This document shows, in pieces, positions 10,747 through 57,841 of a stretch of 57,937 bases of DNA. Both the position numbers and the translations under genes were made by a program. The DNA lies in assembly GCA_002352935.1 (NCBI GenBank), contig DDHO01000011.1, positions 1-57,937 of the forward strand, written 5' to 3'. The notes under the pieces were generated by a model. That model searched no databases. It was not told where the DNA came from and saw nothing but the letters and a program-made list of their open reading frames with translations. The DNA is from Firmicutes bacterium UBA1874. GTDB taxonomy: Bacteria; Bacillota; UBA1874. Positions within the stretch are counted from its first letter, which is position 1, and every line of letters starts with the position of its first letter.

Positions 10747-10823
<77 letters not shown>

Positions 10824-10874: not shown

Positions 10875-11009
10875 GGTGGGGCTTATATTTCTAATAGATC
10901 AAGCCCTTAACTATTTTTTGTTGAATTTTTCAGCAGGTAAAAAAGCGGTACAGCATTATTATATCAAACCCGCCATCGGTCCATTATTCGATAAACAGGC
11001 TTAAGACTT

Positions 11010-12260
11010 TTAAGAAACTTCCTGCCGGTTTTCTTGATCAAGCCAGAAGCTACTGTGTAGAGCCCTCATGGCTTTTTCCGCCGCGTCTTTTTTAACAATT
11101 ACTGAAATTTTAATTTCCGAAGTAGAAATCATATGGATATTTATCTCTGCTTCAGCTAAGGCAGCAAACATGCGGCCTGCCACACCGGGATTAGTGATCA
11201 TGCCTGCCCCGACAATGCTTACTTTAGCAACATCAGAATCATAAGCTATCCCTTTTGCCCCTATATCGCTTTTTACTTTTTCTACAACTTCCACGGCCTT
11301 ATAAAGGTCATCCTGTGAAACGGTAAAGGAAATGTCGTTGTACTCCTCCCTCATAGTACTCTGCACTATCATATCCACATTAATGTTGGCCTCCGCCAGC
11401 GCGACAAAAAGTTTTTGGGCAATTCCAGGCTTATCCGGAACATCAAAAACCGCAATTCTTGCTACGTTTTTATCAGCAGCTACGCCACTGATGATCATTT
11501 CTCTTTCCAAATTTTCCCGATGCAACTCTTCTTCCCCCCCCACAACAGTTCCGTCCTCGCGGCTAAAACTCGATCTAACATGTAAAATAACATTGTTAAT
11601 CTTAGCACATTCTACCGCCCTAGGATGCAGCACTGCCGCTCCCAGGCTGGCCAGTTCCAGCATTTCATCATACGATATTCTCTTTAATTTTCTAGCCCTG
11701 GGCACTACCCGGGGATCTGCAGTGTAAATACCATCAACGTCTGTAAAAATTTCGCATACATCCGCCTTCAAGGCAGACGCTACAGCTACTGCAGTTGTAT
11801 CGGAACCCCCTCTTCCAAGCGTAGTAATTTCGTTTTCCTTAGTAGCTCCCTGGAAACCGGCAACGATAACAACTTTTCCTGCTTCCAGCTCTCTGTCCAA
11901 ACGTTTTTCGTCCACCTTCAGGATTTTAGCTTTCGTATGGACTTCGTCGGTTCTAATCCCGACCTGGGCTCCTGTAAGAGAAATTACGGGCTCCCCAAGG
12001 CTTTCTATAGCCATAGCCAGCAAAGCCATAGATTCCTGTTCACCGGTAGCAAGAAGCATATCCATCTCACGTTCGGGAGGGTTATCCGTAATTTCTTTGG
12101 CAAGAGCAATAAGTTTATCTGTATTATTGCCCCTGGCAGATACAACCACAACCACCTTGTTTCCTTTCTTTTTACATTCTACAATTCGTTTGGCCACATT
12201 TTTAATACACCCTGTATCTGCAACAGAAGTTCCTCCATATTTTTGCACAACAATACCCAT
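11010..12260 (-). CDS. lysC: Aspartate kinase (with two ACT domains)
   Basis: MGIVVQKYGGTSV..., an amino-acid kinase fold followed by a C-terminal ACT pair. Confidence 0.92.
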   Translation of the reverse strand: MGIVVQKYGGTSVADTGCIKNVAKRIVECKKKGNKVVVVVSARGNNTDKLIALAKEITDNPPEREMDMLLATGEQESMALLAMAIESLGEPVISLTGAQVGIRTDEVHTKAKILKVDEKRLDRELEAGKVVIVAGFQGATKENEITTLGRGGSDTTAVAVASALKADVCEIFTDVDGIYTADPRVVPRARKLKRISYDEMLELASLGAAVLHPRAVECAKINNVILHVRSSFSREDGTVVGGEEELHRENLEREMIISGVAADKNVARIAVFDVPDKPGIAQKLFVALAEANINVDMIVQSTMREEYNDISFTVSQDDLYKAVEVVEKVKSDIGAKGIAYDSDVAKVSIVGAGMITNPGVAGRMFAALAEAEINIHMISTSEIKISVIVKKDAAEKAMRALHSSFWLDQENRQEVS

Positions 12261-15846: not shown

Positions 15847-17136
<1,290 letters not shown>

Positions 17137-17180: not shown

Positions 17181-17325
17181 TAAAAATACCTCTTCCCGGA
17201 GAAGAGGTAATAAATCCATCTTTAGCCTTATCTCCCAGGATAAACCTGCAGGATTTAGCACCTTCCCCTTCAGGGAGGTTGCCGGGTTTCACAGGGCCAG
17301 TCCCTCCACCTCTCTTGATAAGAGC
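17181..17325 (-). promoter_or_regulatory. SAM-I (S-box) riboswitch with terminator expression platform
   Basis: The minus strand reads CTTATCAAGAGAGGTGGAGGGACTGGCCCTGTGAAACCCGGCAACC...GGTGCTAAATCCTGCAG...GGAGATAAG. It is followed by CCTCTTC-tccgg-GAAGAGG and a U-run (17207-17181). Confidence 0.92.
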
Positions 17326-32749: not shown

Positions 32750-34036
32750 CTAATCTTCCAACAGTGACTTCAGATGCTCAAAAAAGCCGGGATATGAAAT
32801 ACCTGCGCTTTCTGCTTCCCGAACTACCGTTTCTCCCTCAGCCACAAGGCCGGCAACAGCCAGCGACATAGCTAACCGGTGATCGCCATGTGCATTTACC
32901 TCAGCTGCACGCAATCTTACAGGGCCTTTTATGATCATACCGTCAGGAAGTTCTTTTACTTGTGCTCCCATGCATTTTAATTCCTTAACGGTCAGGGATA
33001 TGCGGTCGCTTTCCTTAACGCGAAGTTCCTGTGCATCTTTGATTAAGGTTTCTCCATGTGCCTGAGTAGCAGCTACGGCCAAAACAGGAATTTCATCTAT
33101 TAGTCTGGGGATAATACCTCCCTTTATACAAGTCCCCTTTAATTTTGAAGCACGCACTAAAAGATCGGCAACTGGTTCCCCGGCTATCATTTTTTGGTTT
33201 ATGATCCTAACGTCGGCTTCCATTTTTCTCATTATTTCTATAATCCCGGTCCGGGTAGGGTTTATACCCACGTTTTTGATGAGGATCTCAGCACCAGGTA
33301 CGATACAAGCAGCTACAAGAAAAAAAGCAGCGGCCGAAATGTCGCCGGGAATAAAAAGCTTTTGACCTTTAAGACGGTTATTACCTGAAACAACAACCTC
33401 CAGCCCTTTTTTCTTAATTTTCCCCCCGAAGGAACGAAGCATACGTTCAGTATGATCGCGTGAAAGAAATGGTTCAGTTATGCTTGTAACCCCGTCCGTA
33501 AAAAGCGCTGCCAGAATAATTGCAGATTTAACCTGAGCACTCGCAACCGGCAGGGTATAGTTTAAAGCTTTCAAAGGTCTACCCACAACTGTAAGGGGAG
33601 CGAACCTGCCACCCTGTCTGCCGAAAATAAATGCTCCCATTTTCCTTAAAGGTTCAACCACCCTGGCCATGGGTCTTTTTCTCAGAGACGCATCACCGGT
33701 TAGAGTAAAATATCCTTCCTGACCCGCCAGGGCTCCCAATAATATGCGCATTGTAGTCCCGGAATTTCCTGCCTGAAGTACATCCTGAGGTTCCTGTAAA
33801 CCTCTCAGTCCCAGGCCATAAATTTTCAAGTCGCTATTAGAGTTTTCGACCTTTGCTCCCAGCGCTTCCAAGCATCTTAACGTGCTCAGACAGTCTTCGC
33901 CCGGAGAAAAGCCGCCGATCTCCGTGATCCCCTCTGCCAATGTGCCCAAAATGGCTGCGCGGTGAGATATAGATTTATCTCCTGGAACGCATATTTCTCC
34001 CCGCATTTTTACCGGCCCGGTAATATGAAAATCCAA
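32750..34036 (-). CDS. aroA: 3-phosphoshikimate 1-carboxyvinyltransferase (EPSP synthase)
   Basis: PGDKSISHR and LGNSGTTMR-like (AGNSGTTMR) motifs, 428 aa. Confidence 0.94.
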   Translation of the reverse strand: MDFHITGPVKMRGEICVPGDKSISHRAAILGTLAEGITEIGGFSPGEDCLSTLRCLEALGAKVENSNSDLKIYGLGLRGLQEPQDVLQAGNSGTTMRILLGALAGQEGYFTLTGDASLRKRPMARVVEPLRKMGAFIFGRQGGRFAPLTVVGRPLKALNYTLPVASAQVKSAIILAALFTDGVTSITEPFLSRDHTERMLRSFGGKIKKKGLEVVVSGNNRLKGQKLFIPGDISAAAFFLVAACIVPGAEILIKNVGINPTRTGIIEIMRKMEADVRIINQKMIAGEPVADLLVRASKLKGTCIKGGIIPRLIDEIPVLAVAATQAHGETLIKDAQELRVKESDRISLTVKELKCMGAQVKELPDGMIIKGPVRLRAAEVNAHGDHRLAMSLAVAGLVAEGETVVREAESAGISYPGFFEHLKSLLED

Positions 34037-34048
34037 TTCGCTACCTCC

Positions 34049-35155
34049 CTAACGCCTGTACACTTCTATTCCCTTTTCTGAAAGTACTTGCTCGGCCTTT
34101 GCCCGTTCTTCGGCAGTGGCAAATGCAATTCTTATTGAGCCTTTTTCTCCTTCTCTTACTCGAAGTATTTCTATGTCCGAAATATTTGAGCCACTACGGC
34201 CCAACGCGGAAGCTACTTCTCCTATTATGCCCGGCCGATCCGGAACTGCAATTAACAGTTCATACAAGGGAGGAAGTATACCTTTCTGTTCCCTGGGAAT
34301 TTGTTCCCTGCAGGTCTGTGCTTTCCTCAACCACTCCAGAAGCTGATCCCGTTTGTTTCCTTCTAACAATGCGCACAATGCGTCCATTTGTTTTTGAAAA
34401 CGAAGAATGGCTTCTTTCAACCTCTTTTTATTAGCCAGGCATATATCCACCCAAAGTTCAGGATTAGATCCCGCAACACGTGTAGTATCACGGAAACCGC
34501 CTGCGCTTAAAGTTAAAGTATGGCTTTCTTCCTTATTTAGCTCTGCAGCTGCGTTTACCAGGGCGGCAGCAAGCACATGCGGAAGGTGGCTTACCGTTGC
34601 AACTATGCGATCGTGAGTAGCGGGATCCATCAATACGGGCCTCGCGCCGAGGATTTCTACCATAGAAATTATCTTTTTGATCGCCTCATCCGGAGTTTTA
34701 TGGGTGGGGGTGAGAGCATAAACAGCGTTTTCAAACAGGTAGCTATCCGCTGCCTGGAATCCCGATCGTTCAGAACCGCTCATCGGGTGCCCTCCTAAAA
34801 ATTTCAAGCCTGCCGGGAGGAGACGTTCCATTGCACTCACAATAGTTTCTTTTGTGCTCCCCACATCTGTGATAACGCACCCTTCTTGGATGTGCGGTAA
34901 GATCGTTTTTACCAGACCTGTAATAACGCTTACGGGCACCGCCATAACGACTATTTCTGCACCTGCCACCCCTTTTTCTATATCCTTTCCCGCCATATGA
35001 ACTGCACCCGCTGACAGCGCCATCTTTATCGTTTCTGCATCTTTATCTACTCCATATACACAGTTAACTTTTTTGCTGCCCTTAAGTCTCCAGGCTAAAG
35101 AACCTCCAATAAGGCCGAGACCGATTACAGTCACTTTTTGAAATTCAAAGGACAT
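34049..35155 (-). CDS. tyrA: Prephenate dehydrogenase with C-terminal ACT domain
   Basis: VTVIGLGLIGGS Rossmann motif and GGHPMSGSE catalytic motif. Confidence 0.9.
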   Translation of the reverse strand: MSFEFQKVTVIGLGLIGGSLAWRLKGSKKVNCVYGVDKDAETIKMALSAGAVHMAGKDIEKGVAGAEIVVMAVPVSVITGLVKTILPHIQEGCVITDVGSTKETIVSAMERLLPAGLKFLGGHPMSGSERSGFQAADSYLFENAVYALTPTHKTPDEAIKKIISMVEILGARPVLMDPATHDRIVATVSHLPHVLAAALVNAAAELNKEESHTLTLSAGGFRDTTRVAGSNPELWVDICLANKKRLKEAILRFQKQMDALCALLEGNKRDQLLEWLRKAQTCREQIPREQKGILPPLYELLIAVPDRPGIIGEVASALGRSGSNISDIEILRVREGEKGSIRIAFATAEERAKAEQVLSEKGIEVYRR

Positions 35156-36000
35156 TTGCTCTCCACCTCAATATGTTGCGGGTATGATCCCAGTATCTGT
35201 ACCTCAGCCATAGTTCTTACGCGAGAAATAACCTCTAAAAGTGCTTTTTCCGAGCAGTGCCCTTCGCAATCCAGGAAAAATACATATTCCCCCAAATTAT
35301 ACTTGGTCGGCCGTGACTCTATTCTCGTCAGGTTTATCTCCGCGCGTGCAAATTCTTTTAAGATATTGTACAGTACTCCCGGCCTGTTCTCGGGCGGGCT
35401 CACCACTAAAGACGTTTTATCGCAGCCGGTTCTCATTGTTGAGCCCCTCCCGACAATAATAAAACGGGTTTTATTTCCTTCATAATCCTGAATGCTGGCT
35501 GCCAGGATCTGTAGTCCGTACCGTCTTGCAGCGAGAGGAGAACTTATAGCAGCAGAGTTTTCTTTTTCCCCTTGTGAGGCAACCCTTCCAGCTGCTTCCG
35601 CGGTGCTCACAGTTTCTATTATCCGGGCATGAGACAGCCGTTTATTAAGAAAACCCTGGCACTGCGCTAGAGCCTGGGGATGAGAATAAACAACTTCAAT
35701 ATTTTCTAATGAAGAGTTCTTACCGGCAAGGCAGTGTTCAACAAGAACAATAATTTCACCTTTAATAGATAACTCTTTTAGTTCTCTTAAACGATCAAGA
35801 GTGAGGTTGACTGCTCCCTCTATGGAATTTTCCACAGGAACAACGCCCGCGTCAACGTCTCCTCCTCTTACTGCTAAAAGCACCTCGGGGATGCTTTTAA
35901 AAGGTACTAGCTCCAAGGTGTCTTTTTGTTGCTGGGACCAGTTGTAAGCAGCCTGGTGAGAAAAAGTTCCCGGTGGTCCTAAATAACCCAATCTTTTCAA
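35131..36000 (-). CDS. pheA: Prephenate dehydratase
   Basis: YLGPPGTFSH N-terminus and TRF..ESRP ACT-domain motifs (TRIESRP). Confidence 0.92.
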   Translation of the reverse strand: MKRLGYLGPPGTFSHQAAYNWSQQQKDTLELVPFKSIPEVLLAVRGGDVDAGVVPVENSIEGAVNLTLDRLRELKELSIKGEIIVLVEHCLAGKNSSLENIEVVYSHPQALAQCQGFLNKRLSHARIIETVSTAEAAGRVASQGEKENSAAISSPLAARRYGLQILAASIQDYEGNKTRFIIVGRGSTMRTGCDKTSLVVSPPENRPGVLYNILKEFARAEINLTRIESRPTKYNLGEYVFFLDCEGHCSEKALLEVISRVRTMAEVQILGSYPQHIEVESKCPLNFKK

Positions 36001-36007
36001 AATTCCA

Positions 36008-37033
36008 TCACGCCAGTTTTCTCCCCTCTATGTGGGCTATTTTTTTTATTTGCTCCATCACGCCCGCAAAATCGTCCGGCGTCAACGACTGAGAACCGTC
36101 GGAGACCGCTTCCGAAGGGTTAGGATGAACTTCAACCATAAGGCCGTCCGCTCCTGCTGCAACCGCAGCCTTGCTCATCGGCGCAACCAGCTGCCGCTGC
36201 CCGGTACCATGGCTGGGATCAACTATTATGGGTAGATGAGAGAGGTGTTTTATTATTGGCACCGTACTGAGATCAAGCGTATTGCGCGTATAAGTTTCAA
36301 AGGTGCGAATTCCCCTCTCGCAGAAGATCACGTTATAATTTCCGCCGGCCATAATATATTCCGCAGCCAAAATCCACTCTTCTATGGTGGAGGACAGGCC
36401 GCGTTTTAAAAGCACCGGCTTATTGATTGCCCCCAGTTCCTTCAAAAGATAAAAATTCTGCATATTCCTTGCACCCACTTGCAGAAGATCAGCATATTCC
36501 GCAACTAAGTGCACAGTATTTTGGTCCATTACCTCAGTAACTACGGGCAGGCCGGTAAGTTCCCGTGCTTTGGCCAGAATTTTTAATCCTTTTTCCTGTA
36601 ATCCCTGGAAAGAGTAAGGAGAAGTGCGCGGTTTAAAAGCTCCGCCTCTCAGCATAGTGGCTCCTGCTTTCTTCACGGCTTCCGCCGCCTGAAGGAGGCT
36701 TTCCTCACTTTCAACGGCACACGGACCTGCAATTACCTCCAGTTCTTCTCCTCCTATCTTACGGTTTCCCACATTAATAACAGAATCTTCCGGGTGAAAT
36801 TCCCTCCCCGCAAGTTTGTAAGGCTGCAAAATGGGTACTACTTTTTCGACTCCCGGCATAACTTCGATGGCCATTTCACGCAATTTTGTTTTTGTATCCT
36901 CCCCAATTACTCCGATAATTGTACGGGCAACACCGCTCGAAAGATGTATTTTAAAGCCTTCTCGAGAAAGGCGTTCCTTTACAGCTTCTATGTTCTCTTC
37001 TGAAACATTTCTTTCCATGATTATAATCACCAT
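36008..37033 (-). CDS. aroF: 3-deoxy-7-phosphoheptulonate (DAHP) synthase, class I-beta with N-terminal ferredoxin-like regulatory domain
   Basis: KDO8PS/DAHPS-I-beta core (GPCAVES, DPSH) preceded by a regulatory domain of about 70 aa. Confidence 0.9.
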
Positions 37034-37162: not shown

Positions 37163-37190
37163 AAAAAAGATCACCCCGGTTTAAGTGATC
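37163..37190 (-). terminator. Intrinsic terminator in the trpA-aroF spacer
   Basis: GATCAC (37190-37185), 10-nt loop, GTGATC (37174-37169), then TTTTTT (37168-37163). Confidence 0.65.
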
Positions 37191-37358
37191 GCAGCCATTT
37201 CAACCACCTCGCTACCGTTCTGCCGGAAATGCTTTTAAACCTTAACCTGTTTCTTGCCGTGCTTCCAGAATCTTCTACCCGGATATTATAAAATAGTGAA
37301 ATCAAGATCACAGTGGATCATAGCACAGCATCCGATCACTGGCAAGATTTTTTTATCT

Positions 37359-44064: not shown

Positions 44065-44092
44065 AAAAAACCGGCGCCAAGGGACACCGGTT
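44065..44092 (-). terminator. Leader terminator (attenuator) upstream of trpE
   Basis: AACCGGTG (44092-44085), 8-nt loop, CGCCGGTT (44076-44069) running into a U-tract of six. Confidence 0.7.
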
Positions 44093-44117
44093 CTGTGGTC
44101 AATTACAAGATCCGCAT

Positions 44118-44165
44118 CTCTCCTTAGCTCAACTCTTCTCCGCTCAACTCTTCTCTGCTCATCTA
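44118..44165 (-). promoter_or_regulatory. Array of 10 NAG triplets at exact 5-nt spacing (TRAP-type RNA-binding site)
   Basis: TAG-at-GAG-ca-GAG-aa-GAG-tt-GAG-cg-GAG-aa-GAG-tt-GAG-ct-AAG-ga-GAG on the minus strand. Confidence 0.75.
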
Positions 44166-44290: not shown

Positions 44291-44659
44291 TTAAATTAAC
44301 TCTGGCCGCAGCTGTGCCGCTTCACGAAGGTACACGTGTTTAATTTTTCTGGACTCCACTTCAGTATTGACGTGCAATAAAACCCTGATTATGCGGGGCA
44401 GGCTGCCGGGCACATCAATTTCCTGGGCGCAAAGAAGGGGAACGTATTTCCACCCCAACTCACGTGCAGCGCGGGCCGGAAAGGTAGACCTCAGATCCGG
44501 AGTAACCGTAAAAAAGGCGCTGGCAATATCGTCGATGTTGAGACTGTTTTGCTCTACAATTGCCTGTAGCATTTCCCGCGTAGCACGCATTATCTCTTCC
44601 GGTTCATCAGAAACTACCGATATCGCACCTCTAATGCCTCTTACACAAGTTTCTGCCAC
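44291..44659 (-). CDS. aroH: Chorismate mutase, AroH class
   Basis: VRGIRGAISV...FPARAARELGW...VPGSLPRIIRVLLHVNT is typical of AroH. GTG 44659 lies 8 nt after AGGAG and 4 nt after the upstream stop, which removes the 18-codon overlap in the ORF track. Confidence 0.88.
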   Translation of the reverse strand: MAETCVRGIRGAISVVSDEPEEIMRATREMLQAIVEQNSLNIDDIASAFFTVTPDLRSTFPARAARELGWKYVPLLCAQEIDVPGSLPRIIRVLLHVNTEVESRKIKHVYLREAAQLRPELI

Positions 44660-44663
44660 GTTA

Positions 44664-45092
44664 TCAACTCCTGCCCGGAGCAACCCTGTGTCCCAGACCA
44701 ACGCCGACTTCATTTAAATGCAATAAGCCGATACCAAAGAACACAGCAACGCTAACATGCTCTTTGTATCGAGCTATGCCAATCTTTCCTCCTACATTAA
44801 GGCCGACGGCTTTAACCATGAGCTGGGACAACGCCTCTCGTGCCGCTCCGGCAACTGCACCTTCATCAGCATGTATACCCTCTATCACGCCCTCACGTTT
44901 TGCAGCAACTACCGTTCTCTCTACAATGTTCTTTACGGAACCTATAAATTCCCCTCCGTAATCTACAGCGGCCGTTTTTATGCTCTGGTTGAGAAATCTC
45001 TCCTTGAGCTCACTTTCCTCTTTCCTGTTTCTAGATATTGCCATCTGTATAGCCGCTCTGGCTATGTTCCTGCTACCGTACATATCTTCCAC
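44664..45092 (-). CDS. HutP family protein (RNA-binding antiterminator family), ligand and target unknown
   Basis: 142 aa. REGVIEGIHADEGAVAGAAREALSQLM...GLNVGGKIGIARYKEHVSVAVFFGIGLLHLNEVGVGLGHR is colinear with B. subtilis HutP and matches the clostridial HutP-family sequence type. GTG start lies 10 nt after GGGGAGG. Confidence 0.75.
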   Translation of the reverse strand: MEDMYGSRNIARAAIQMAISRNRKEESELKERFLNQSIKTAAVDYGGEFIGSVKNIVERTVVAAKREGVIEGIHADEGAVAGAAREALSQLMVKAVGLNVGGKIGIARYKEHVSVAVFFGIGLLHLNEVGVGLGHRVAPGRS

Positions 45093-45154
45093 TTGGGATT
45101 ATCCTCCCCGCTTCTCTATAAAATACCTCAGCGCAATTATAAATAAATATCAAG

Positions 45155-56461: not shown

Positions 56462-57823
56462 CTAGAGCTCTGGCAGGGTGGACCAGCTCTTCTCCAGCAA
56501 TTCATCCGAAAGGGGGGCATCTTTAAGCTGCCCGCTTAAATAATTATCATAAGCAGAAAGGTCAAAATGCCCGTGCCCGCTGAGATTAAAGAGTATGGTC
56601 TTGCTTTCGCCGCTTTCCTTGCAGGCCAATGCCTCTTCAACGGCACCATGAATAGCATGAGCACTTTCTGGAGCCGGAAGTATTGCCTCTGTCCGGGCAA
56701 ACAAAACGGCGGAAGAGAAGACGTCTCTTTGATTGTAAGCCCTAGCAGTTATATACCCGTCATGATAAAGCTGGCTGAGGAGTGGCGACTCGCCGTGATA
56801 TCTCAAGCCGCCTGCATGAATGCCAGGAGGTACAAAGTCATGGCCCAACGTATACATTTTAAGCATGGGAGTAAGTTTAGCGGTATCCCCAAAATCGTAG
56901 GCAAATTTTCCGCGTGTCAGAGTCGGACAGGCAGTAGGTTCAATCGCACGCAATTCTATCTTTTTCCCGTTTAAAATATCAGTAAAAAAAGGAAAGGCAA
57001 TTCCGCTGAAATTGCTCCCCCCGCCGCAGCACCCGATAACTACATCAGGAAAAGCATCAGCTTTTTCCATCTGTTTTTTAGCCTCCAGGCCTATGACGGT
57101 CTGGTGTAGCATAACATGATTGAGAACGCTACCCAGAGAGTAATGAGTATCACTACGGGAAGCTGCAATTTCTACGGCTTCGCTGATCGCAATACCAAGT
57201 GTTCCCGGAGAAGAAGGATCTTTTTCTAATATTTCGCGTCCGGATTTAGTCTGACTGCTGGGACTGGGAATAACATTCGCACCATAAGTTTCCATAAAAA
57301 TCCGGCGGTAAGGTTTTTGATCATAGCTTACTCGTACCATATACACTTCGCATTCCAGGTCAAAAAAGCTACAGGCTATGCTGAGCGCAGTACCCCACTG
57401 GCCGGCACCCGTTTCAGTAGTCAAACGTTTTGTACCGGAAATCTTATTATAGTAAGCCTGGGGTAAGGAAGTATTTAATTTATGACTGCCGGCAGGGCTT
57501 GTCCCTTCATACTTGTAGTAAATTTTGGCTGGAGTATCCAGTTCTTTCTCCAAATTGTAAGCACGGTACATGGGAGACGGGCGCCAAAGACGGTAGAGTT
57601 CTCTTACTTTCTCAGGAATTTCAATCCAGCGGTCAGTACTTACCTCTTGAATTATCAGGTCCATAGGGAAAAGGGGTGCAAGGTCCTCAGGCCCTGCAGG
57701 TTTTTTGGTAGCCGGATTTAAAGGGGGGCTTAATGGGTTAGGTAAGTCCGCCTGAATATTATACCAGCTTGTTGGAATATCTTTTTCTTCTAATAAAATT
57801 TTATAATCTTCACTCAACCTCAT
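56462..57823 (-). CDS. TrpB-like PLP-dependent enzyme (tryptophan synthase beta, TrpB2 type)
   Basis: N-terminal [13 protein letters not shown] extension, SHKLN lysine motif, roughly 450 aa as in TrpB2. The ATG at 57823 follows GAGGAGAGGAGAG. The ORF-track TTG at 57838 lies inside that SD. Confidence 0.88.
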
Positions 57824-57841
57824 CTCTCCTCTCCTCAACTA
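57808..57841 (-). promoter_or_regulatory. Phased NAG triplet array covering the SD and start codon of the TrpB2 gene
   Basis: TAG-tt-GAG-ga-GAG-ga-GAG-at-GAG-gtt-GAG-tg-AAG on the minus strand. The AUG is formed by the 'at' spacer plus the G of the fifth triplet. Confidence 0.6.

Follow-up and report, generated by a model that had tools for sequence, protein, structure and literature searches.

The antiterminator HutP recognizes two clusters of three NAG triplets, one on each face of its D3-symmetric hexamer (PMC2425495, PMC12591593). Canonical representatives of this family are encoded at the head of hutHUIG(M) operons. A second system, TRAP (MtrB), acts on trp genes, and we recognized its targets as sets of 9–11 (G/U)AG triplets that are separated by spacers of 2–3 nt, that reside in a trp leader, and that are followed by a terminator. 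A full-text literature search, which reached only a minority of subscription journals, returned no paper that links HutP with chorismate mutase, DAHP synthase or aromatic regulation, and no discussion of a HutP-like family beyond the Bacillus orthologues. Here we describe a HutP-like protein, HutPL, encoded among genes for aromatic amino acid biosynthesis in a 57,937-nt stretch of DNA from Firmicutes bacterium UBA1874 (hereafter ‘the window’), together with a repeat element that is found in the leaders of these genes and their relatives.

HutPL and its gene neighbourhood

The HutPL coding sequence occupies positions 44664–45092 on the minus strand, and its 142-aa product had been described in the original prediction as colinear with HutP. 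The Pfam HutP model (PF09021) agrees, matching HutPL from end to end (profile positions 1–128 of 128) with 162.7 bits and E = 6.4e-48 at a cut-off of 25 bits; B. subtilis HutP scores 111 bits on the same model. The open reading frame (ORF) starts with GTG, 9 nt downstream of a GGAGG sequence, and TAAC separates its TGA stop codon from the GTG start codon of aroH, which confirms the 4-nt gap reported earlier for this junction. The aroH gene (44291–44659, minus strand) encodes a type I chorismate mutase (CM_1/AroH; PF07736 and TIGR01796, 146 bits).

On its 5ʹ side HutPL adjoins ilvC. A consensus scan of the gap between these two genes (45093–45154) revealed no clear sigma-70 promoter, and therefore HutPL may share a transcript with ilvC in its host. 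The region 3ʹ of aroH consists, in order, of a promoter and leader, trpEGDCFBA, the gene for an FXD-type DAHP synthase (DAHPS), pheA, tyrA, aroA, cmk, plsC and ispH/rpsA. The annotated ORFs of the 58-kb window include no hut enzymes (Lyase_aromatic and urocanase families), as had been predicted. Elsewhere in the window, a SAM riboswitch (RF00162, 89.8 bits; 17225–17324, minus strand) resides upstream of a PLP enzyme of Cys/Met metabolism (15847–17130), and a tRNA is located at 10750–10823 on the minus strand.

A single-chain AlphaFold2 model of HutPL (pLDDT 84.8, pTM 0.83) exhibits the topology a-a-b-a-a-b-b-b, the same order of elements as in HutP. The best 11 matches to this model in a Foldseek search of the PDB are all HutP (TM 0.64–0.75, probability 1.00, 17–22% identity), and the model can be superposed on the HutP crystal structures as expected for a member of this fold family. 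Profile-profile comparison of the HutPL subfamily with 20 canonical HutPs by hhalign gave E = 3.6e-5. HutP was missed among the PDB sequences at E ≤ 10 both by phmmer and by a profile of 20 subfamily members (hmmsearch), and it is only Pfam, hhalign and fold comparison that connect HutPL with canonical HutP. HutPL is a real, uncharacterized relative of this histidine-sensing RNA-binding protein, and the kinship is genuine but remote.

We take the metal ligands of HutP to be H73, H77 and H138, and its contacts with L-histidine to be R88, R98 and E81. All six residues are invariant in 20 of 20 canonical HutPs. The original prediction had paired the SHALYH segment of HutP with EGAVAG in HutPL, and this pairing is reproduced both by MAFFT and by profile-profile hhalign; an earlier hhalign comparison of a profile with a single sequence had placed the SHALYH segment in another register with low confidence. 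In the hhalign and MAFFT alignments, H73, H77 and R98 are replaced by G78, G82 and L98, respectively, and R88 falls inside a 5-residue deletion. H138 corresponds to L126, with H125 adjacent, and the sole pocket residue that is kept is E81, which is equivalent to E86 of HutPL. Judged from these alignments, the residues that form the L-His/Mg2+ pocket of HutP are not conserved in HutPL. Alignment and structure comparison together return what the prediction had suggested, namely a HutP fold whose pocket residues have been replaced.

The subfamily has its own set of invariant residues: D44, G46-G47, E58-R59, K65-R66-E67-G68, H74, E77-G78, G82, R85-E86, G101-K103, R108, H112, H125 and H135-R136. 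At 90% identity it comprises 4917 clusters, compared with 768 for canonical HutP, and these collapse to 249 clusters at 50% identity. The HutPL subfamily is thus large yet tightly conserved, and identity between classes ranges from 65 to 78%.

Gene neighbourhoods were examined with one genome per species, which gave 386 relatives; the best 80 of the 386 loci were kept, all of which were selected because they contain HutPL. In 70 of the 80 loci, drawn from Peptococcia, Moorellia, Syntrophomonadia and Clostridia, aroH resides directly downstream of HutPL, where canonical HutP genes would have hut genes. The gap between the two genes has a median of about 22 nt and spans –10 to about 30 nt in most loci, with several pairs overlapping. 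Beyond aroH, the trp operon follows in about 16 loci and DAHPS-tyrA-aroA in about 25, and neither is found in the remainder. Three loci (L005, L011, L012) lack aroH, and there a leader and DAHPS come immediately after HutPL. HutPL is firmly tied to aromatic biosynthesis by its linkage to aroH, and the original view of an uncharacterized HutP-family paralogue associated with aromatic genes therefore holds.

The surroundings of this gene pair are also conserved, as a block that includes scpAB, ytfJ, spmAB and rluB on the one hand and cmk-plsC-ispH/rpsA on the other. Because HutPL resides in this housekeeping block, and because some Clostridia have cmk after HutPL and no aroH, its adjacency to aroH may partly be inherited synteny. 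More distant HutPL relatives (41–50% identity) do not adjoin aroH, and most of their contigs are too short to be informative.

Several variations on this arrangement were encountered. In most of the 80 loci, a protein of about 155 aa is encoded directly upstream of HutPL on the same strand (for example, L003 9384–9851, L004 9467–9958 and L016 9493–9966). It is poorly conserved, has an N-terminal hydrophobic helix and matches no Pfam family; in the window it is missing, and cobO and ilvC take its place. Two loci (L064 10413–11432 and L075 1904–2923) carry a single ORF of 339 aa that joins CM_1 to cytidylate kinase, which may reflect a genuine gene fusion or the loss of a stop codon. Between aroH and the DAHPS leader, L022 (about 10880–11060), L034 and L055 contain a small ORF whose product resembles a 2x[4Fe-4S] ferredoxin (MPPKVDLDKCTGCETCV...).

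NAG arrays of the trp genes

The original prediction described NAG arrays with the 2-nt spacers typical of TRAP sites, notably in the trpE leader, and such arrays are present both there and at trpB2. The trpE leader array (44118–44165, minus strand) consists of ten NAG triplets (one UAG, eight GAG and one AAG), all with 2-nt spacers. It is followed by the trp leader terminator (44067–44094, minus strand), for which a minimum free energy (MFE) fold gives a 12-bp stem and a U-run. A further five NAG triplets with 2-nt spacers (57819–57841, minus strand) extend over the Shine–Dalgarno (SD) sequence and start codon of trpB2 in the manner of a TRAP-type translational site. The window therefore holds both arrangements of a TRAP/MtrB regulon, leader triplets before a terminator and triplets over an SD sequence.

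Comparable arrays occur in the related loci, where they track trpE in 14 cases. Most loci that hold trpE carry an array of 7–12 triplets with a period of 5 nt, positioned 73–135 nt 5ʹ of this gene, and the arrays stay with trpE even where it lies 1.5–5.5 kb from aroH (L006, L042, L066, L079). Six-triplet arrays over the trpD start (L006 14493–14520 and L072 13444–13471) resemble the TRAP translational control sites of Bacillus. Most HutPL/aroH loci have no 2-nt-spacer array nearby. These arrays are the signature of TRAP, and they track the trp genes and not HutPL. One eight-triplet array with a period of 5 nt (L028 1454–1498, from a Clostridiaceae metagenome-assembled genome) lies 5ʹ of a small membrane protein that precedes HutPL; it is not beside trpE and may be a chance match.

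A gene for TRAP itself was sought in the same sequences. Searches with tblastn and two TRAP queries found no mtrB (PF02081) in the window or in any of the 80 loci, the best match (E = 0.03) being inside a metallo-beta-lactamase ORF. In L006 and L042, the ORFs that separate aroH from the trp array encode unrelated proteins, none of them TRAP, and a scan of viral contigs likewise found no TRAP. Among TRAP homologues, the best 120 matches listed are all from Bacillaceae, with no clostridial seed, and we found no account of the distribution of TRAP in the literature searched.

The GGYAG repeat element

A different conserved leader is present in the intergenic regions between aroH and DAHPS. It consists of a –10 box, a cluster of repeat units, a linker, a second cluster and an intrinsic terminator. 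The unit is 8 nt in length (N-A-Y-G-G-Y-A-G). The second cluster, or site II, contains three NAG triplets with a period of 8 nt followed by a G-run, with the consensus G-NAG-NAC-GG-TAG-NAC-GG-NAG-GGGGG, in which little or no variation is seen at the spacer A, the GG and the AG. The first cluster, or site I, has one to three units located 30–55 nt 5ʹ of site II, and the intrinsic terminator lies 25–35 nt 3ʹ of site II. Extra units 5ʹ of site II were found in 25 of 30 leaders at distances of 10–87 nt (median about 38 nt), with a mean of 1.27 upstream units per leader compared with 0.28 in shuffled sequences.

In the window, the element precedes a predicted regulated operon on the minus strand (32750–37033) that encodes, according to Pfam, the FXD-type DAHP synthase (36008–37033), pheA, tyrA and aroA. 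The DAHPS leader begins with a promoter-like site, TTGCCA-17-TATGAT with a TG (37317–37345), recognized by its match to the consensus. A candidate site I (gGGUAGaagauucuGGAAGcacGGCAAG; 37253–37280) was read from the sequence, and a candidate site II (ccGGCAGaacGGUAGcgaGGUGG; 37204–37226) is supported both by our sequence-only model of the element (R1) and by an exact match to GGNAGNAYGGNAG at 37212–37224. The third NAG of this site II is degenerate, and the R1 match (37201–37224, minus strand), the only one in the window, is a weak one (12.8 bits, E = 0.19). An intrinsic terminator (GAUCACUU-AAACCG-GGGUGAUC and a U-run; 37163–37190) was located by terminator scan and MFE folding. The leader as a whole folds no better than shuffled sequences (z = +0.77), which fits a single strand that is bound by protein better than it fits a riboswitch.

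R1 was run at E ≤ 1 on both strands of 1.30 Mb of sequence, comprising the window and the 80 loci, and yielded 52 matches, 51 of them in the loci. Every one of the 52 is on the HutPL strand. Among the 51 locus matches, 32 precede FXD-type DAHPS. Another eight, each equipped with a separate promoter and terminator, lie 50–200 nt upstream of HutPL, and six fall at the junction between HutPL and aroH. The HutPL-proximal matches lay outside the training set of the model. The junction matches overlap purine-rich SD sequences, are in part trivial for this reason, and are convincing only where at least two tandem units occur (L006, L038, L040, L058, L076). The other five matches are unclassified; among these, those in L042 and L079 precede a DAHPS-like start that is cut by the end of the locus, that in L055 precedes the DAHPS of this locus, and that in L037 shows the same leader-plus-terminator layout at the end of its locus. 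The element thus occupies three kinds of position, preceding the regulator gene itself, the second gene or the main biosynthetic operon. About 34 of the 80 loci yielded no element within ±10 kb.

A scan of metagenomes for the exact pattern returned mostly noise, with 109 of 120 matches in unrelated contexts or in 8-nt tandem repeats. Those exact matches that are linked to aro genes are all just 5ʹ of DAHPS, HutPL or pheA, or just 3ʹ of HutPL at the expected place of aroH. These data show directly that the element exists, that it is specific in strand and position, and that terminators accompany it. Directly after aroH, three genomes (L004, L021, L035) encode a shorter DAHP synthase paralogue that lacks the FXD domain, and hence they have two DAHPS genes; in each, the full GGYAG leader is found only before the FXD-type gene.

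Known types of leader RNA were considered as explanations for the element. A T-box or riboswitch was rejected since the leaders match no Rfam family at the gathering score or at E ≤ 1 and the window leader shows no unusual folding. RNAalifold gave no consensus on the leader alignment, in which the terminators are misaligned, accounting for this outcome. CsrA was also rejected as the reader of the element, given that GGA is not conserved in the units and the first base of the spacer varies.

A proposed attenuator of the aromatic pathway

The layout of three plus three NAG triplets, together with the co-localization of the element with the HutPL operon at three positions, leads us to propose that HutPL binds the element. 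With moderate confidence, we favour a model in which HutPL is an aromatic-pathway RNA-binding attenuator that would act through the GGYAG element and not through the trp leader arrays. The broader idea of a HutP paralogue as a sensor for the aromatic pathway is thereby strengthened, with a candidate RNA target now in hand.

According to this model, HutPL is a ligand-gated and probably hexameric protein that would regulate the common and Phe/Tyr branches of aromatic amino acid biosynthesis by recognizing a bipartite element of 8-nt units, as distinct from a TRAP-type trp leader array. Each trimeric face of a HutP-type hexamer would contact one NAG cluster, as it does on hut mRNA. Once bound at site II, the protein would sequester the G-run and thereby keep it from pairing with the terminator 5ʹ arm, such that ligand-bound HutPL would favour termination and thus produce feedback repression. 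The genes involved serve the common pathway and the Phe/Tyr branch, and the L-His pocket appears to have been replaced; the ligand is therefore likely to be an aromatic amino acid, possibly Phe or Tyr, or a pathway intermediate. In other genomes, the element could also mediate autoregulation where it precedes the HutPL-aroH operon, and it could control translation where it extends over the aroH ribosome-binding site.

The sign of regulation in this model depends on the pairing between the G-rich end of site II and the terminator 5ʹ arm (CACUCC), because protein binding to this end would favour termination. When folded without the terminator 3ʹ arm, 17 of 23 leaders form this pairing, and shuffles that preserve composition do so in 14 of 23 cases, so the antiterminator, and hence the sign, is not established. 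A reading with the opposite sign, wherein HutPL uses the same GGYAG sites as an antiterminator to activate the aro genes, for instance when it senses a precursor or starvation signal, gains from the fact that this pairing is no better than composition predicts, and from the precedent of canonical HutP as an antiterminator. We nevertheless consider such activation improbable. The NAG clusters of hut mRNA are within and flanking the terminator, whereas both clusters are upstream of it here; moreover, leaders of biosynthetic operons usually employ feedback repression, as with TRAP and PyrR, and sites over the aroH SD sequence (L038, L040, L076) would block translation rather than activate it. A more serious competitor, albeit an unlikely one, holds that HutPL does not read the element at all, but is instead a partner for a small molecule or a protein such as trimeric AroH, with the GGYAG leader being read by another factor or acting by itself. 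Translational coupling or inherited synteny could keep HutPL beside aroH, given the tight or overlapping junction and the conserved housekeeping block, and identity of 65–78% across classes is likewise compatible with a conserved protein partner. Three-fold symmetry is shared by AroH trimers and HutP-type hexamers. However, TRAP and HutP are similarly well conserved, the 3+3 layout of NAG triplets is specific to the binding mode of HutP, and the presence of the element upstream of HutPL itself in eight loci is what would be expected for an autoregulated RNA-binding protein. That the leaders have no stable conserved fold, as judged by the shuffles and by RNAalifold, argues in addition against a riboswitch.

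The mechanism envisaged in the original prediction, in which HutPL replaces TRAP by reading the 2-nt-spacer arrays that precede trpE and cover the trpB2 ribosome-binding site while sensing tryptophan or another aromatic amino acid, now seems very improbable to us. Its appeal is evident: NAG triplets are recognized by HutP and TRAP alike, natural HutP sites have been described with spacers of 2–4 nt, HutPL is encoded 0.5 kb 5ʹ of the array, and mtrB was not found in the window or the 80 related loci. Yet 7–12 contiguous triplets with a period of 5 nt match the geometry of an 11/12-mer ring and not that of a 3+3 hexamer, and the arrays lack the A-Y-G-G context that is conserved in the element co-localized with HutPL. 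B. subtilis has 2-nt-spacer arrays but is not known to have a HutPL paralogue, and some Clostridia carry annotated TRAP orthologues. The co-occurrence that the original prediction proposed to look for was found only in part, in that HutPL accompanies aroH in 70 of 80 loci, whereas NAG arrays are absent from most such loci and follow trpE to places 1.5–5.5 kb from aroH. Two distinct repeat elements at different operons of the same genomes imply two readers, and the tempting conclusion that a HutP paralogue has taken over from TRAP would be corrected accordingly.

The attenuator model can be extended to the family as a whole. We suggest, tentatively and with somewhat less confidence than for the window itself, that most Pfam HutP members may be not regulators of histidine utilization but a distinct class of ligand-gated, RNA-binding attenuators of aromatic biosynthesis in spore-forming anaerobes that read GGYAG elements in the 3+3 arrangement, with TRAP controlling trp, and HutPL controlling DAHPS, chorismate mutase and the Phe/Tyr genes, in the same genomes. 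If this is true, about 4900 protein clusters that are annotated as ‘hut operon positive regulator’ and that reside in loci without hut genes would gain both a function and an RNA target. The model would also explain how entry into the shikimate pathway is controlled in Peptococcia, Moorellia and Syntrophomonadia, where no riboswitch or T-box was detected in the leaders, and would add a third amino-acid-responsive NAG-repeat system to HutP and TRAP.

Among characterized systems, HutP of Bacillus subtilis (PDB 1VEA, 1WPV, 1WMQ, 3BOY) is the closest parallel. The two proteins belong to the same Pfam family and have the same fold, and each is encoded first in the block of pathway genes under its control, which for HutPL is a proposed control. 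The target of HutP and the candidate element of HutPL both consist of two clusters of about three NAG triplets, a linker and an adjoining intrinsic terminator. The two differ in genetic context (hut versus aroH/DAHPS) and in the repeat, which for HutP is a NAG triplet with 2–4 free nt and for HutPL is a candidate 8-nt unit with a conserved A-Y-G-G spacer; canonical HutP sites have neither 5-nt spacers nor a conserved GG. Furthermore, the candidate HutPL sites are upstream of the terminator and not within it, which makes attenuation likelier than antitermination.

TRAP resembles the proposed system in its mode of action, being an amino-acid-activated oligomer that binds a NAG-repeat leader, blocks an antiterminator and covers ribosome-binding sites. 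Unlike HutPL, it has an unrelated fold (PF02081), forms rings of 11 or 12 subunits and reads 9–11 triplets with a period of 5 nt at trp genes, whereas the element linked to HutPL presents 3+3 NAG triplets with a period of 8 nt and would control DAHPS, pheA, tyrA, aroA and aroH. The pyr attenuation protein PyrR of Bacillus provides a third comparison, since it is likewise a regulator encoded by the first gene of its operon. PyrR sites are located ahead of the regulator gene, in the gaps between early genes and ahead of the main biosynthetic genes, which are the same three positions at which the HutPL element is found, although PyrR has an unrelated PRTase fold and recognizes a structured hairpin in place of single-stranded repeats.
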